DNA from: Pirellula sp.
Lineage (GTDB): Bacteria > Planctomycetota > Planctomycetia > Pirellulales > Pirellulaceae
NCBI GenBank assembly: GCA_044359895.1
Contig: JBIKLJ010000001.1
Location: 23,508 to 87,507, forward strand
Reading direction: 5' to 3'
DNA length: 64,000 nt
Below the pieces are notes generated by a model. It saw nothing but the letters and a program-made list of their open reading frames with translations, had not been told where the DNA came from and ran no database searches. Of this stretch, positions 3,000-11,136 are shown piece by piece; position 1 is the stretch's first letter, and each line of letters begins with the position of its first letter. Both the position numbers and the translations under genes were made by a program.

Positions 3000-3863
3000 A
3001 TGGATCCGTCATCTGAGCAAGTGGAGCCAAAAGGTTCATCCTCGAGACCCAACTGGCAGCTTCCCGAGGGTGTTTCTCGCGGTGCGTGGGATTATGTGAA
3101 TGAACCTTCGATTGCGACGGAGTATGATCGGTTTCACGCTGGTCATCCCTTGCTGGATTTGGATCACGAGATCATCACGAATCAGCTTGGAGACCAGCCA
3201 TTTCGACCGGATGGATCGCCCAAAATAGCGGTCGATTGCGGATGCGGAACGGGACGGAATCTTCTGCCATTAGCGGCTCAAGGATGGCGAGTCCTTGGTG
3301 TCGACTTGAGCAGCGAGATGCTGCGTGCGTTTCGAACCAAAGCGGACAAATCTTGGCAAGACCGAGTCTCTACGGTTCGAGCGAACATGGCGAATATTGG
3401 GTTTCTGAAGGACAATAGTGCGGATGCCGTTCTGTGCATGTACAGTTCGATTGGTATGCTTCAAGGGCGATCGAATCGACGCAATTTTCTTGGTCATGCA
3501 GCTCGTACACTGCGTGACGATGGCCGTTTTATTGTCCACGTGCACAATCGCGGTTCATGGCTTCGCGATCCAGGCGGCATACGACGGACGCTCGGCGATT
3601 GGTGGCGATCGAAGCGAGAAAAAGGCTGGGAGCTTGGTGATAGTGTGTATGCGTACCGAGGTCTCCCAACGATGTTCCTTCACATCTATTCGGAGAGTGA
3701 ACTTCTGGCCGATTTATCAGCGAGTGGCTTCCTACTTCACAAGTTGTATCGATTCAACAGAACATCCAGCCAAGTTCTCAAGGGAAGCTGGTTCAAACAT
3801 CTTCGAAGCGGCGGTTTTATCGCTGTGTGTAAGCGCAAGAGCAAGTCACTCGCAGCATCGTAG
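3000..3863 (+). CDS. Class I SAM-dependent methyltransferase
   Basis: Motif I VDCGCGTGR, followed by VLGVDLSSEML and ADAVLC. Confidence 0.85.
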   Translation: MDPSSEQVEPKGSSSRPNWQLPEGVSRGAWDYVNEPSIATEYDRFHAGHPLLDLDHEIITNQLGDQPFRPDGSPKIAVDCGCGTGRNLLPLAAQGWRVLGVDLSSEMLRAFRTKADKSWQDRVSTVRANMANIGFLKDNSADAVLCMYSSIGMLQGRSNRRNFLGHAARTLRDDGRFIVHVHNRGSWLRDPGGIRRTLGDWWRSKREKGWELGDSVYAYRGLPTMFLHIYSESELLADLSASGFLLHKLYRFNRTSSQVLKGSWFKHLRSGGFIAVCKRKSKSLAAS

Positions 3864-3879
3864 CGCTGCCCCCAGCATC

Positions 3880-4119
3880 GCACTGCTTTCCATTCGGGTT
3901 CACCCCAATCGGAAGCAACAACTGACAGCTACGCAAACGGTCGAATTGAGTAGCATGTTAGAAATCAAGTCATGGATCCTTTCTTTTGGATCTTCGGCAG
4001 AGGTACTACAACCACCGGAATTAAGAAAAAGTATTGAAGAAGAGATCCGACATTTACAAAGGGTTTATGGCAGCTCGTCAATCCAACGCCCCCATTCATC
4101 AACAGGTGAAAAAGCATGA
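3880..4119 (+). pseudogene. C-terminal (WCX-like) remnant of a WYL-domain regulator
   Basis: VELSSMLEIKSWILSFGSSAEVLQPPELRKSIEEEIRHLQRVY matches the C-terminal pattern of WYL proteins (EikxWilsfGxxaeVLxPxeLR). The HTH and WYL core are missing. The start coordinate is approximate. Confidence 0.75.
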
Positions 4120-4283
4120 TTACATCCGAACCGCATGTCGATTTGTCTTTCAAGCTGCGATGCGAATCCCAGCTTTGGTCGGACCACGGCTTTGCGCTCT
4201 TTGGTGCGGTCTCGCGTCTATTGCCAGACACCCCTGAAGCCAACAGTCTAGGTATTTTGCCGATTTCTGGTGGCCAGGTATGA
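4116..4283 (+). pseudogene. cas6: N-terminal remnant of Cas6 (MYXAN-type, DHGxAL motif), 55 codons
   Basis: Hand translation gives MITSEPHVDLSFKLRCESQLWSDHGFALFGAVSRLLPDTPEANSLGILPISGGQV*. This resembles the vDLxFxl..DHGYaLygAlsrllP...gihPIxG start of MYXAN-type Cas6. The ATG overlaps the WYL-remnant stop (ATGA). Confidence 0.7.
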
Positions 4284-4344
4284 ACATAAACGCGGACGAT
4301 GCAAGCGTGGTGATAAGAAACAAGTCCTCGCGTGGCCCAGTGAT

Positions 4345-4542
4345 CGTACCGTTACTGCAAATAAGATTTGGCTTTCCGACTCAGGGCGTCGCAAAGCGAT
4401 TGCTTTGTTCGAGGAACGATTGAACGACACATATGTGCATCCGCATACTGGGCAATCCATGGCTTATTCGCGAATGGTTGAGTTGGAGCTTCGGCTTTTG
4501 GAGAAGGAATGGACAGGCGAATCGCAACTTCCCCTTTCCTAA
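4345..4542 (+). pseudogene. cas1: C-terminal remnant of Cas1
   Basis: KIWLSDSGRRKAIALFEERLNDTYVHPHTGQSMAYSRMVELELRLLEKEWTGE matches the Cas1 C-terminal pattern GRrkxixxfExRl...HP..g...sY.R..ElqxRLL. The catalytic core is absent. The start coordinate is approximate. Confidence 0.75.
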
Positions 4543-4710
4543 GTCGTTTGCCTGTTGGTGGTTAGCAGTAATGGTTGGCGTAAAGACCAGGCTGATATTG
4601 TCTATGCTTACAAGAACGCCAATGGTATCGAGCGACATGCGGGGCTTTCGCAAAAGGAATTGGCTTGCTGGGATGCGTGAGCAAGAGTTTCAGTTGAAGT
4701 CGACGACAAC

Positions 4711-5085
4711 CTAGGTGCTGCTGGATTCAAAAGAGATCAACCTTGCACCACATTCGTAACAGCCTTTGCCCAATCGACGGCATCGAACAATCTTAGCCAC
4801 GGCTCGCCTGTCCATGAATGTAATGGTGACTCGTTCTTCCGGCCAAAGCTGTTCGTGCACAAGCAACCCAATTCCACATTTGGAAACATCTTTCACCAGA
4901 ACTCGCATCTCGCTATCGGAACGTGCAAGCATGGGTGGAGACCAGTCAATGCGAAGGTCTGCCTCGCAGCGGCATCGAAGACGACTGTGCTTGCGAGTCT
5001 CGAAGTGGGTGGTCTCGGTAAAACCACCTTCGGAAAAGAAGTTCGACAAGCTCGGGGGGAGCTGGACTTTTAGTATCCTGGTCAT
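4711..5085 (-). CDS. PilZ-domain protein (c-di-GMP receptor)
   Basis: RxxxR (RKHSR) and DxSxxG (DVSKCG) motifs are present. The ATG at 5085 overlaps the HD-GYP stop codon. Confidence 0.8.
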   Translation of the reverse strand: MTRILKVQLPPSLSNFFSEGGFTETTHFETRKHSRLRCRCEADLRIDWSPPMLARSDSEMRVLVKDVSKCGIGLLVHEQLWPEERVTITFMDRRAVAKIVRCRRLGKGCYECGARLISFESSST

Positions 5086-6050
5086 GTTATTTTCTCTGCT
5101 TCCAACAAGCCTATCCAAGCATCGACAAAAGCTGGGTCCAGCGAATGGTTAGACTCACGCTGTAAGATCGCGATTGCCGAAGTCACGCTTAGCCTTTGCC
5201 TTTGTGGACGATCGGAGGTAACCGCCTCAAAGGTATCCACGACCGAACACAATCGGGCCCATGGATGGATTTCAGACTGAACTAAAGCGGTTGGGTATCC
5301 TTTGCCGTCCACTCTTTCGTGATGTTGATAGACAATCATTAGCTCATCGCGAGACAAATCCGCAACCTTGCATAACAGCTTGTAGCCTAAGATCGAATGC
5401 TTTACGATTTCCTTCCGCTCAAACTCGTCCAGCTTTCGCGCTTTCTTAACTAACTTAGGATCCAGCTCCAACATACCAACATCATGCAGCAAAACACCCG
5501 TTCCGATCTTACTAAGATCCGACAGGGGATACCCTAGGCTCTCGGCTAGGAAAATCGCATAACATGCAACATTGACCGAGTGCGTTGCAATGTGATCGTC
5601 ATGACGCAAAATTTCTAGAAGATCCCGTAATGTTGGCTGGTTCCGGTTGATCAAGGAGGCAAAGACGCGGCTGAGGGAACGAGCAACACGCACAAGATTA
5701 TCTGGTTGCTTCATCACAAATGTTTTAGCAATTAGATCCCGAGATATCTCCATAATGTTGGTAAGTCGGGTCTTCCAAGGAAGAGTCTCATCCTCTAAAA
5801 ACCGCTCCCAATTCGAACGCAGATGTTCTTGAAACTGCTCGAATTGATCGTTGGATACGTAAAGATTGTACACCCCCTCCGACTCGAAGCTACCGATTTT
5901 ATTGAGATCAATTGCTTGTGTTTCGGATATCAGCAGAATCGGGCGATGGTCATTTTTTGCGCACGCGTAAATGTTGACTTCAGGGCGTGCGTCGTCAATC
6001 AAGCTAAAAATGCTTATAGGAATGAAGGTCTGGTTATTGGTCGTCAACAT
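5082..6050 (-). CDS. HD-GYP domain c-di-GMP phosphodiesterase
   Basis: THSVNV, LLHDVG, HHERVDGKGYP and VVDTFEAVTSDRP motifs. Confidence 0.9.
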   Translation of the reverse strand: MLTTNNQTFIPISIFSLIDDARPEVNIYACAKNDHRPILLISETQAIDLNKIGSFESEGVYNLYVSNDQFEQFQEHLRSNWERFLEDETLPWKTRLTNIMEISRDLIAKTFVMKQPDNLVRVARSLSRVFASLINRNQPTLRDLLEILRHDDHIATHSVNVACYAIFLAESLGYPLSDLSKIGTGVLLHDVGMLELDPKLVKKARKLDEFERKEIVKHSILGYKLLCKVADLSRDELMIVYQHHERVDGKGYPTALVQSEIHPWARLCSVVDTFEAVTSDRPQRQRLSVTSAIAILQRESNHSLDPAFVDAWIGLLEAEKIT

Positions 6051-7825: not shown

Positions 7826-9532
7826 GTGAGTGGGCCGGGCCACGAGGGCCAACGATCGCTGAAAGTGCCTCGTGAGAACAATACCTTCCTGTGTACTCCA
7901 CACGCAGGAAACGCTCAGAGACTGCTGCGCCAGAACCAATCTCAGAAAGACAGCCAATCCCAAGCTGACTGGATCCGGCCGCTGCAAACCTTGGCAAGGA
8001 CCCAAGCCCTTCAGGCGGCCCGCGATTACACCTCGACCTACGCTCCGCAGAGCATTTTGAACGCCGGGGCCGAACCGTCGAATTTGGTAGTCGGCGGCCA
8101 TCAACCCGAGCTCTTCCATCCGGGCGTTTGGTTTAAGAATGTTCTTTTGTCAAAGATCGCACAGTCGACGTCTTCGTGCGGCTTGCACGTCATCATCGAT
8201 CACGATTTGGCTCGGTTAGATGCGATCCGAGTTCCCGCTCAAAGCACTGCGACGATGGACAGCTTTGAGCATGGTATTGGATATGAGAAAGGCGAGCTTT
8301 ATCAGACAGCAATCGCACTTCCGATTCGATCCGATTTTGGCAATCGATTGCCATGGCACTTAACCCTAACGGACGGTACGGACCTTAGCCGCTGGAGAAA
8401 GGCCATTGACCAGATCGCTAGCGGTCTTGCTAGCTGCGGTGCTTTTGGCTCCATCGCTCAGGATAGGTTTCCGCTATTGAGCGAATGCCTATCGAAGTGC
8501 AAGAACTTTAGTGATGTGTTTTCCCAGTTTCGTCATCGGATCGAGATTGAACATGGGGTCTCGAATCTAGAAGTTCCGATCGGTTCAATCTGCGATGCTT
8601 CCGCCTTCGGTAGATTTGTGTACCATTGTGTGGCCGATGCGGATTCGCTCTGGAGCATTTACAATCGTTGTCGTTCGGAATATCGGCATCGGCATTCCAT
8701 TCGCAATCAAGCACAGCCAGTTCCCGAACTCTTGCGAGAAGACGGGATGCTGGAGCTTCCGTTCTGGATCTACAAACGCGATGTGGCTTCCTTCACGGAT
8801 CGGAAGCGGTTGTGGTTATTTGTCGATTCGAGTCAATCGTCTGACGAATATCAGCTAGTAGACCATCCCGATCCAGCCCAGCGAACGATTTGGTTGTCGT
8901 TACCCAGGGACCCAAAGCAGGTTGAATGGGCTTGGTCGCGATGGGTGGATGAAGGTGTCTGCATCCGCCCACGTGCCTTGATGACCACATTGTTCTTGCG
9001 CTGTTTTGTGGCGGATTTGTTTGTACACGGGATCGGCGGCGGGGCTTATGACGAACTCACGGACGCCATCATTTTGGCTTGGTTAGGCATGGAGCCCCCG
9101 GAGTACATCACGTGCTCCGCTTCTTTGCACCTGGGTTTATCGGCCAGCGGCGATGCACAGGTTGAAAGCATGCAGCGAGCGCATCGCGAATTGCAACTGA
9201 TGCGATCCGTTCCCGAGCGGTTTCTGGACACAACGCAAAGTGACCAAAAACAGCTGTTCGATGAGCACGCTCAGCTGCTGACGCATATTCCAGAGCGTGG
9301 TAAGAAGCGTGCGTGGCATGCTGAGGTCATTCGAGCTAAAGCACAGATGGAATCCGCAATCGCCGAGCAAAAGCGAATCGCGATCGCAGAACTTCAATCG
9401 CTTTACCGAACGCAACATCGGAACAAGATTCGCGATTCACGCGAATTTTCTTTTTGCTTGTTCCGGGAAGCGGATATCCTATCACGGTTGATCCATCTTG
9501 CCGATCAAGCGATGGATGTCTTGTCAAGTTAA
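7826..9532 (+). CDS. BshC-like putative ligase (conserved hypothetical)
   Basis: VVGGHQPELFHPGVWFKN, IIDHD, LFVHGIGGGAYD, a C-terminal coiled coil and REFSF. These occupy the same order as the TGQQ, GGPxE and QER blocks of BshC. The GTG start lies 1 nt after the GT2 stop. Confidence 0.6.
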   Translation: MSGPGHEGQRSLKVPRENNTFLCTPHAGNAQRLLRQNQSQKDSQSQADWIRPLQTLARTQALQAARDYTSTYAPQSILNAGAEPSNLVVGGHQPELFHPGVWFKNVLLSKIAQSTSSCGLHVIIDHDLARLDAIRVPAQSTATMDSFEHGIGYEKGELYQTAIALPIRSDFGNRLPWHLTLTDGTDLSRWRKAIDQIASGLASCGAFGSIAQDRFPLLSECLSKCKNFSDVFSQFRHRIEIEHGVSNLEVPIGSICDASAFGRFVYHCVADADSLWSIYNRCRSEYRHRHSIRNQAQPVPELLREDGMLELPFWIYKRDVASFTDRKRLWLFVDSSQSSDEYQLVDHPDPAQRTIWLSLPRDPKQVEWAWSRWVDEGVCIRPRALMTTLFLRCFVADLFVHGIGGGAYDELTDAIILAWLGMEPPEYITCSASLHLGLSASGDAQVESMQRAHRELQLMRSVPERFLDTTQSDQKQLFDEHAQLLTHIPERGKKRAWHAEVIRAKAQMESAIAEQKRIAIAELQSLYRTQHRNKIRDSREFSFCLFREADILSRLIHLADQAMDVLSS

Positions 9533-9558: not shown

Positions 9559-10344
9559 TTACTTAGGATTCGTTACCAAACGTCGTGGGGCTTGCGTCAC
9601 CACTGAGGTTGGTTTCGCCTTCACCGACCTAGTGCTTTGCGGAACATCTCGTTGCACTCCTTCATCGAAAGATATGCCGGATCCTACGGCGACTTGGCTA
9701 GTGGTGTTTCGCGAACGCCTCATTGCGTTTGGATCTGGAATAGGGGCAATCACGTCAGGTTCGGGAGCCTTCTGAACCCTAGGCACTGCCGGAGTCGGTT
9801 CACCGCGAGACGCGGACGTTTCCGACTTCATTCCCTGTGTGGCAGGCTGGCTTGAAGGTACGCCAACTGTTGCGTGATGCGTTGTTGTATCGTGCGTCGA
9901 ACCGGAAGAGCAGGACGAGCATGTGCTTGAACCATGCGATTCAAAATGACCGTCGGCGCATGTCGCGCAGCCATCGTTTCCAGAAGGGTGATAGCGATGG
10001 CCCCACAAATTGCGAAGTCGGCCCAAGGCGGTTGGGAAGCTGCCGCAATGTTCACCCGTGAACTCGCCATTGCAGCCGCAAGGATCGCAGACCGGGGGAT
10101 CGTTGATATGCTCGTCCCAGTAAATTTCGCCACAGCCGGACGAACAATGGGCGCTCTTGATGCGATTGGCAACGCGTCGACCTACGCCAGAGAACGGGAC
10201 TTCGAACTGCCCGCAGCCGCCGCATCCGATATCGTTGCACGAACTCATCGAGCAACTGTCTCCCGCCATTCGAACGGAACAACATCCGACATGGCTCACC
10301 AATAGACCGGTCAAAACAAGCCATAGACCTAACGCTGATTTCAT
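9559..10344 (-). CDS. Cys-rich putative lipoprotein of unknown function
   Basis: Signal peptide ending HVG-C, 16 Cys in about the first 150 aa, a CSSGCGEIYWDE..DPPVCDPC block, and a Pro/Ser/Thr-rich tail. Confidence 0.75.
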   Translation of the reverse strand: MKSALGLWLVLTGLLVSHVGCCSVRMAGDSCSMSSCNDIGCGGCGQFEVPFSGVGRRVANRIKSAHCSSGCGEIYWDEHINDPPVCDPCGCNGEFTGEHCGSFPTALGRLRNLWGHRYHPSGNDGCATCADGHFESHGSSTCSSCSSGSTHDTTTHHATVGVPSSQPATQGMKSETSASRGEPTPAVPRVQKAPEPDVIAPIPDPNAMRRSRNTTSQVAVGSGISFDEGVQRDVPQSTRSVKAKPTSVVTQAPRRLVTNPK

Positions 10345-10488: not shown

Positions 10489-11136
10489 ATGACAATTCAG
10501 TTGATTCTTGATTCGCGATTGGTCGCCATCATCCGGCTTGATGATCTGAGCGCCGCCCAGCAGATTGCGGAAACGTTGATCGAGGCAGGTGTGCTGGCAT
10601 TGGAATTTACGTTAACCAATCCGCAAGCAGCCACAGAAGTTCGGAAACTTCGAGATTCGAACCGTCAGATTTTGGACGGCAAAGCGGCCATTGGGATCGG
10701 ATCCGTTCGATCGTTGGAGGAGGCCAAGATCGCGATCGACAGCGGGGCTCAATTCGTGGTGTCGCCCATCACGTCCGTTCCCATCATCGACTATTGCAAG
10801 CAGAATCGCATTGCCGTTTGCCCCGGTGCCTATACGCCTACCGAAATCGCAACCGGTTGGGAAGCGGGCGCAGACATCATTAAGGTCTTTCCTGCACGAA
10901 CGCTCGGTCCTGGGTACATCAAAGATGTTCTGGCTCCCATGCCTTATTTGAAATTGATGCCTACGGGTGGTGTGGACCACACGAACTTGAAAGCCTATTT
11001 CGACGCTGGCGCCGTAGCGGTTGGTGTTGGAAGTCAGTTTCTTGATCCAATTGCCATACAGAATCGCGATTGGGCGTCCATCGCACAGGTTGCAGCGCGT
11101 TATGTGACGATCTGTAGCCAGTCAGCACCCCGCTAA
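10489..11136 (+). CDS. eda: KDPG/KHG aldolase
   Basis: VAIIR, LEFTLT, IGIGSV, GAQFVVSP, PGAYTPTE, IKVFPA and LMPTGGV motifs. Confidence 0.93.
   Translation: MTIQLILDSRLVAIIRLDDLSAAQQIAETLIEAGVLALEFTLTNPQAATEVRKLRDSNRQILDGKAAIGIGSVRSLEEAKIAIDSGAQFVVSPITSVPIIDYCKQNRIAVCPGAYTPTEIATGWEAGADIIKVFPARTLGPGYIKDVLAPMPYLKLMPTGGVDHTNLKAYFDAGAVAVGVGSQFLDPIAIQNRDWASIAQVAARYVTICSQSAPR

Follow-up and report, generated by a model that had tools for sequence, protein, structure and literature searches.

Debris of a type I-MYXAN-like CRISPR-Cas operon in a lake-dwelling Pirellula, very probably dismantled in place by successive short-homology deletions

Decayed and orphaned CRISPR-Cas loci are familiar as array-only or cas-less remnants in Listeria and Escherichia, and such remnants appear in comparative genomics papers. 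The intact system closest to the locus described here is type I-MYXAN, with the Cmx gene set of Myxococcus xanthus, represented among the NCBIfam models by cas6_cmx6, MYXAN_cmx8, cas5_cmx5_devS and cas1_MYXAN. Regulators adjoining defence systems include the BrxR/CapW-type family, whose members are described as WYL-domain transcriptional regulators in PMC9122601. In this work we analyse a stretch of 64,000 nt from Pirellula sp. (assembly GCA_044359895.1, contig JBIKLJ010000001.1, positions 23,508-87,507 of the forward strand), hereafter called the window, in whose coordinates all features are given unless another contig is named; its genome is a draft of 426 contigs that is 91.7% complete. Where labels are needed, G denotes the genus genomes, of which 67 were examined, and L the contigs and loci compared, including metagenome contigs.

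Profile and alignment searches show that the forward strand at 3937-4518 retains a type I-MYXAN-like CRISPR-Cas operon in four collinear pieces, namely the tail of a WYL regulator, the head of cas6, a bit of a Cas4 domain and the C-terminus of Cas1. They lie between two convergent genes, in a relic of about 0.8 kb that runs from about 3883 to 4681. The initial annotation, which had given the span as 3880-4545, was right about the location and wrong about the extent. Its three coding remnants in one orientation (a WCX-type WYL C-terminus, a 55-codon Cas6 N-terminus and a Cas1 C-terminus) are indeed found on this strand at the places it gave, and the searches against WYL/WCX, Cas6 and Cas1 profiles returned significant matches to all three peptides, with scores far beyond chance. 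It is very probable, in our judgement, that this stretch is the debris of a type I-MYXAN-like operon of about 10 kb, non-functional and dismantled in place by successive deletions between short homologies.

The operon from which the pieces descend can be read in intact relatives, which show exactly the order proposed for the ancestor: WYL, cas6, cas3, cmx8, cas7, cas5, cas4/cas1, cas2 and array. In G023 (contig C13) it comprises a WYL gene (349 aa), cas6/cmx6, cas3, an unassigned gene, a second cmx6, cmx8, cas7, cas5/cmx5, a cas4/cas1 fusion of 582 aa and cas2, followed by an array in which a 36-nt repeat occurs at least 23 times. The WYL homologue of this genome matches HTH-type regulator models at its N-terminus, and its fusion covers cas4 profile positions 3-180 and cas1_MYXAN positions 3-347. 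Two cas6/cmx6 paralogues (L027 5452-6060 and 9150-9758) share this one operon, both above the TIGR02807 cut-off. G076 (contig C184) follows the same plan with a DUF559 gene added between cas5 and cas4/cas1, and carries an array of at least 15 repeats. A metagenome contig of 10.2 kb, L057, holds WYL, cas6, a cas3-like gene, further genes, cas7, cas5, DUF559, cas4/cas1 and cas2, and served as the best single reference for aligning the relic. Against it the window resolves into three collinear blocks of 83-92% nucleotide identity (85-92% against G076): 3937-4280 corresponds to L057 1112-1455 (83%; WYL tail and cas6 head, contiguous), 4278-4348 to 8665-8735 (87%; the Cas4 piece) and 4348-4517 to 9896-10065 (92%; the Cas1 piece). 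All pieces are thus collinear with one intact operon, as descent from a type I-MYXAN locus entails.

The two DUF559-bearing operons, L057 and that of G076 (L038), are alike at their ends, where WYL/cas6 and DUF559-cas4/cas1-cas2 are 67-94% identical in amino acids, and divergent in cas3, cas7 and cas5, which are just 26-31% identical; modules have therefore been exchanged within the operon lineage. A further metagenome contig of 2765 nt (L058) belongs to a G076-like strain (WYL 97% and cas3 99% identical), and its cas6 at 1728-1981 matches residues 1-39 and 154-204 only, which looks like an internal deletion, the start of the operon seeming intact in other respects; this may be another locus starting to decay.

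The first piece, at 3937..4119 (+), consists of the last 60 codons and the stop of the WYL regulator and matches the WCX profile PF25583 with E 1.2e-10, residues 25-64 of the translation of 3865-4119 covering positions 36-75 of the 76 in the profile. The piece corresponds to residues 281-341 in the G023 protein, is 83% identical in nucleotides to L057 1112-1288, and is 99% identical to the tail of an intact 339-aa WYL gene on contig L051, which carries what we call allele A of the same site. Start codon, promoter, HTH and WYL domain are all missing from the window, where part of the WCX domain alone remains, short of an HTH-WYL-WCX regulator; allele A keeps both PF13280 and PF25583. The left edge of the piece is junction J1, a lone copy of the 10-nt direct repeat ACGGTCGAAT at 3937..3946 (+). 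This repeat occurs twice in L051 (10938-10947 and 11947-11956), and the window has one copy with both flanks, so that J1 is a deletion of 1,009 bp between direct repeats, which removed the WYL promoter region and codons 1-279. Also lost through J1 is a conserved palindrome, GATTGGACA-N5-TGTCCAATC, that stands upstream of the WYL gene in L051 (about 10990-11020) and in L057 (about 160-190), a candidate operator of the WYL regulator.

The head of cas6/cmx6, its first 55 codons, follows at 4116..4283 (+). Its start codon (4116-4118) overlaps the WYL stop (4117-4119) as ATGA, an overlap that had been read as a trace of translational coupling and that is conserved in the intact operons of G023 and G076. 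The piece matches the first 44-47 positions of PF09559 (E 3.5e-7) and of TIGR02807 (E 3e-6; positions 3-47 of 197), and aligns to Cas6 residues 1-52 of G023 and 1-55 of G076. Its 27.3 bits against TIGR02807 fall below the 98.85 bits set for a full-length Cas6/Cmx6, to be compared with 182.9 bits for the G023 homologue. Homology to L057 is contiguous up to position 1455, where junction J2 joins it to 8665 with the microhomology GTA, present on both sides, at window 4278..4280 (+). This connects codon 55 of cas6 to codon 90 of cas4, and about 7.2 kb are missing between them: the rest of cas6, cas3, cmx8, cas7, cas5, DUF559 and cas4 up to codon 89. The TGA at 4281-4283 that ends the cas6 head is there because J2 shifted the frame.

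Between the cas6 and cas1 pieces the initial annotation had left about 60 nt to a possible third gene; they belong instead to the Cas4 domain of the same fused cas4/cas1. This fragment of 23 codons (4279..4347, +; residues 90-112 of the G076 protein) was recognized by tblastn, with amino acid identities of 95.7% to G076 and G022 and 91% to G023, and nucleotide identities of 85-87% to G076 and L057. At junction J3, an overlap of about 2 nt (TA) at 4347..4348 (+), L057 position 8735 is joined to 9896, which amounts to an internal deletion of 1,161 bp (387 codons) that leaves the Cas4 and Cas1 pieces in frame; in G076 the two matched pieces are separated by 1,160 nt. The Cas1 fragment that follows (4348..4518, +) has 57 codons, about residues 500-556 of 567 in G076, to which it is 96.7% identical in amino acids and 92% in nucleotides. 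The open reading frame 4270-4542 matches cas1_MYXAN (TIGR03983) over profile positions 277-340 of 347 with E 8.1e-24 and 84.2 bits, far from the 358 bits of a full-length MYXAN Cas1. The catalytic core and the last 11 codons are absent, and residues 90-112 and about 500-556 are all that is left of a Cas4 nuclease and a Cas1 integrase. The WYL/cas6 half of the relic is 54-67% and the cas4/cas1 half 95-97% identical to G076, and we considered separate source loci for the two halves. This is unnecessary, as G023 and G076 show the same contrast of rates between themselves and L057 matches both halves at 83-92% in nucleotides.

Homology to the operon ends after 4518, at junction J4 (4518|4519), 11 codons short of the natural cas1 stop, and the reading frame stops at 4540-4542. 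The 163 nt of unrelated sequence that follow (4519..4681) take the place of cas2, the array and the 11 final codons of cas1. Relaxed tblastn, short blastn and pattern searches of this tail revealed neither cas2 nor a leader nor a degenerate repeat; no Rfam family or tRNA was detected, no DNA or protein match turned up in the 67 genus genomes, and comparison with the intergenic regions of G002 and G005 gave no similarity above shuffled controls. Its last part, 4643-4681, is shared with the sister species that carries allele D (below), and the 124 nt at 4519-4642, which match nothing, may once have flanked the array on its far side.

On the left the relic is bordered by an intact gene for a SAM-dependent methyltransferase (3000..3863, +; Pfam Methyltransf_25, E 1.6e-17), followed by what remains of the ancestral methyltransferase-WYL spacer (3864..3936), as delimited by comparison with the other alleles. 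Synteny with G002 and G005, sister genomes free of the relic, stops at about 3882 and, in G005, resumes at 4682. The convergent gene on the right (4711..5118, -), predicted by gene finders in a version of 124 aa, keeps its synteny in G002, G005, L059 and all alleles. It had been named PilZ, which its motifs RKHSR and DVSKCG favour by resembling RxxxR and DxSxxG, whereas Pfam gives no PilZ match even at E 10; we therefore speak of a PilZ-like gene. Inside the spacer, at 3885..3932 (+), lies a dispersed REP-like hairpin repeat (fold -13.5 kcal/mol, z -1.3). Its imperfect hairpin is followed by a linker, conserved and of the ACAACTGGAAGCTACAAG type, and after about 50 nt by a second hairpin, which is GC-rich. 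Twelve copies lie on 11 contigs of the window's own genome (besides the window: C36, C51, C143, C237, C9, C24, C412, C406, C153 with two, and C224); it is also found in many members of the genus, with copies clustered on contig C88 of G008. These 48 nt were examined as a possible 37-nt minus-strand CRISPR repeat and rejected because the copies occur singly and scattered, continue into common sequence past the hairpin and have no spacer periodicity.

The 91.7% complete draft contains no other cas1 and no cas2, cas3_core gives only sub-threshold matches to generic helicases, and TIGR04413 (Cmx8) and TIGR02586 (Cas5/Cmx5), both of which match G023 proteins, have no match in it, nor in any control genome. 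The absence of an array, already noted from the sequence, is upheld: searches for the 36-nt repeat of the G023/G076 type came back empty for the window with up to 3 mismatches allowed and for the whole genome with up to 8, and a k-mer scan of the genome found no array, only spacer-less tandem repeats, a negative to be read knowing that arrays often fail to assemble. Those at C222 4261-4480 and C285 37312-37660 repeat hairpin units of 56 nt and 32 nt (GTACGACGGACTTCCAAGTCCGTC) in tandem, have no spacers and are not CRISPR.

It could be argued that the small frames, i.e., the Cas6 head, the 90-codon Cas4-Cas1 mini-frame and the 54-aa WCX tail, were retained for a function such as that of a decoy or a regulator, since the three frames have no internal stops, cas4 and cas1 remain in frame and the window's allele is widespread in lake metagenomes. 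Such retention is very improbable. No promoter-like site (nor any terminator-like one) rises above chance within 3800-4800, and the operon promoter region was removed by J1; the surviving Cas6, Cas4 and Cas1 pieces have no catalytic core, and alleles of the same species delete these very pieces. One junction in three would be in frame by chance alone. Between allele A and the window, the 745 nt of the relic differ by 7 substitutions (3 non-synonymous and 4 synonymous), as dense as the 81 in 8,172 nt of flank and too few to test for selection. The remaining frames thus appear to be inert debris, as far as can be told from sequence, and the gene-finder calls of a "54-aa WCX", a "55-aa Cas6" and a "40-aa" protein are artefacts that should be annotated as pseudogene debris.

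Evidence for dismantling in place comes from alleles of the same site, retrieved from public assemblies of the same species by exact look-up of the methyltransferase protein, which is 100% identical in alleles A, B and C. Their flanks are 97.3-99.98% identical to each other (left 99.5-99.98%, right 97.3-99.0%). Allele B is that of the window and recurs with 100% identity in one contig each from ENA (L050) and JGI (L054); 20 lake-water runs contain its relic, and no RNA run does. Given a draft of 426 contigs and a dispersed repeat at the left edge of the relic, one may suspect a chimera of metagenome assembly, yet these independent contigs are identical to the window over 8.7-13.9 kb across all junctions, and Logan contigs from two other runs (X14 and X17) span the relic, over 3890-4750 and 3890-4900, with zero differences, which leaves an assembly artefact next to no probability. 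Contigs of four runs show no alternative joints at the relic. In one low-depth contig (X20) cas4 continues leftwards across J2 at about 93% identity, and this contig probably comes from a relative.

In allele A (L051) the 339-aa WYL gene is whole, with its WYL and WCX domains, and is followed by the same cas6|cas4|cas1 junctions; this allele equals the window plus 1,009 bp flanked by ACGGTCGAAT. The step from A to B is therefore a single deletion, directly observed, and J1 must be the latest of the window's junctions. Several separate deletions had been proposed from the start, and this one is now shown directly through L051; the junctions number four, not two or three. Allele C, seen in L047 and five or more additional contigs, retains other parts: WYL residues 1-73, cas6 123-171, cas5 180-224, the whole DUF559, cas4 1-25 and cas1 519-556. 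Since A and C each hold pieces missing in the other, neither derives from the other, and their ancestor must have had an operon complete from WYL to cas1 residue 556. The window is identical to L051 and L047 at 3850-3946; J4 is letter-identical in B and C, and A is gapless against the window across it. Because J4 and its tail are common to the three alleles, J4 would predate their split and be the first lesion. The coexistence of such non-nested alleles points, on sequence comparison, to independent parallel erosion with one step observed.

Beyond the species, allele D (L059) comes from a sister whose methyltransferase is 89% identical in amino acids to that of the window. It contains WYL 1-171, a 172-nt piece of a middle gene of the L057 type, the spacer with DUF559 and cas4 1-90, after which come 44 unrelated nt, the tail sequence from 4643 and the PilZ-like gene. 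At the same site G002 keeps only the spacer and DUF559, this gene being 90% identical in amino acids to the copy in the G076 operon, and G005 has about 150 nt resembling the cas5-DUF559 spacer of L057 (73.5% identity, E 3.5e-20), which are not a dispersed repeat in that genome. At least six relic states of one site are thus known, three of them within the window's species. An intact operon between the methyltransferase and the PilZ-like gene might have been expected in the nearest sisters; these show other relic states instead, and no whole operon was met at this site among the 67 genus genomes, the exact-protein look-ups and one metagenome scan.

The DUF559 gene, which is Vsr-like, has its place between cas5 and cas4/cas1, with inverted repeats of about 42 nt on either side. 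Operon copies are found at L038 13573-14001 (G076), L057 7945-8373 and L029 2650-3084 (G022), and relic copies at L047 11681-12103, L059 2510-2935 and L004 2592-2996 (G002); it is missing in G023 as well as in the genome of the window. Full-length copies, about 90% identical in amino acids, persist in alleles C, D and G002, three independent relics whose neighbouring cas genes are all destroyed. As another observation on these alleles, the right end of J2 in A and B (window 4279-4282), at cas4 codon 89/90, lies within 4 nt of a breakpoint of allele D (L059 3228-3231); no hot spot is claimed, since a rough count (some 17 breakpoints over about 10 kb) gives such a coincidence a chance of roughly 8%.

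In G076, G023 and G022 the intact operon occupies genomic contexts that differ from the window site, which implies that the operon reached this site as a mobile island. The same fact could be used to argue that recombination from related lineages carried a fragment that had collapsed beforehand, or several variants of the operon, into an intergenic hot spot, the alleles then being products of transfer. In addition, the cas5 end of allele C is G076-like and allele D carries an effector-module piece of the L057 type, so that pieces in the two alleles resemble different operon variants, and the right flank is more divergent between alleles than the left. The site may indeed have seen two or more variants of the operon, or recombination between lineages. 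As an explanation of the relic itself, however, import is quite improbable, since the left spacer and an identical J4 with its tail are common to A, B and C, these alleles keep complementary pieces of one collinear operon, and A turns into B by a plain direct-repeat deletion on a background that is 99-100% identical.

The mode of these deletions can be read from the junctions. Those of the window show overlaps of 10 nt (J1), 3 nt (J2) and about 2 nt (J3), and all junctions readable across the six site states have a perfect or near-perfect overlap of 2-10 nt. Short overlaps of this kind are expected for RecA-independent illegitimate deletion, and we infer, by applying this established knowledge, that the same short-homology mechanism was at work here.

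The preferred history, dismantling in place, would begin with an operon of WYL, cas6, cas3, cmx8, cas7, cas5, DUF559, a cas4/cas1 fusion, cas2 and array, situated between the methyltransferase and the PilZ-like gene in an ancestor of the lake planctomycete clade. Probably J4 came first, as its sharing among alleles suggests, and with the 3′ end of cas1, cas2 and the array lost, immunity would have ended. The roughly 7.2 kb of J2 and the in-frame 1,161 bp of J3 would have gone next, in either order, and J1, the last step, would have taken the WYL promoter and 279 codons in its 1,009 bp. We infer that loss of the operon was neutral or mildly favoured. A stronger proposal, in which the operon left after J4 was purged repeatedly and independently, in one species and its sisters, by active selection against the leftover interference genes and not by neutral drift, the alleles forming a natural time series and DUF559, intact in three independent relics, being a self-sufficient passenger or itself selected, seems to us unlikely.

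The relic is ordinary pseudogene debris, a decayed CRISPR-Cas locus of a known kind, but one that is unusually cleanly resolved. It offers a junction-resolved case of a defence operon vanishing in a wild, uncultivated population, useful for studying how fast CRISPR-Cas turns over, and by which mechanisms deletions arise, in freshwater Planctomycetota. The WYL regulators beside defence systems have their counterpart in the WYL and WCX protein that comes first in the operon of the intact relatives and of allele A, whereas the window keeps just the last 60 codons of it. MYXAN models are the best family for both the cas6 and the cas1 pieces, and the gene order, the ATGA overlap and the cas4/cas1 fusion of type I-MYXAN are all found in the relic's intact relatives; the window differs in having 55, 23 and 57 codons left of cas6, Cas4 and Cas1 and in lacking cas3, cmx8, cas7, cas5, cas2 and an array, a relic and no system. 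Like decayed CRISPR-Cas loci elsewhere, it arose by a few large deletions that left stubs of the terminal genes; unlike them, its site presents at least six relic states and is resolved to the level of individual junctions.
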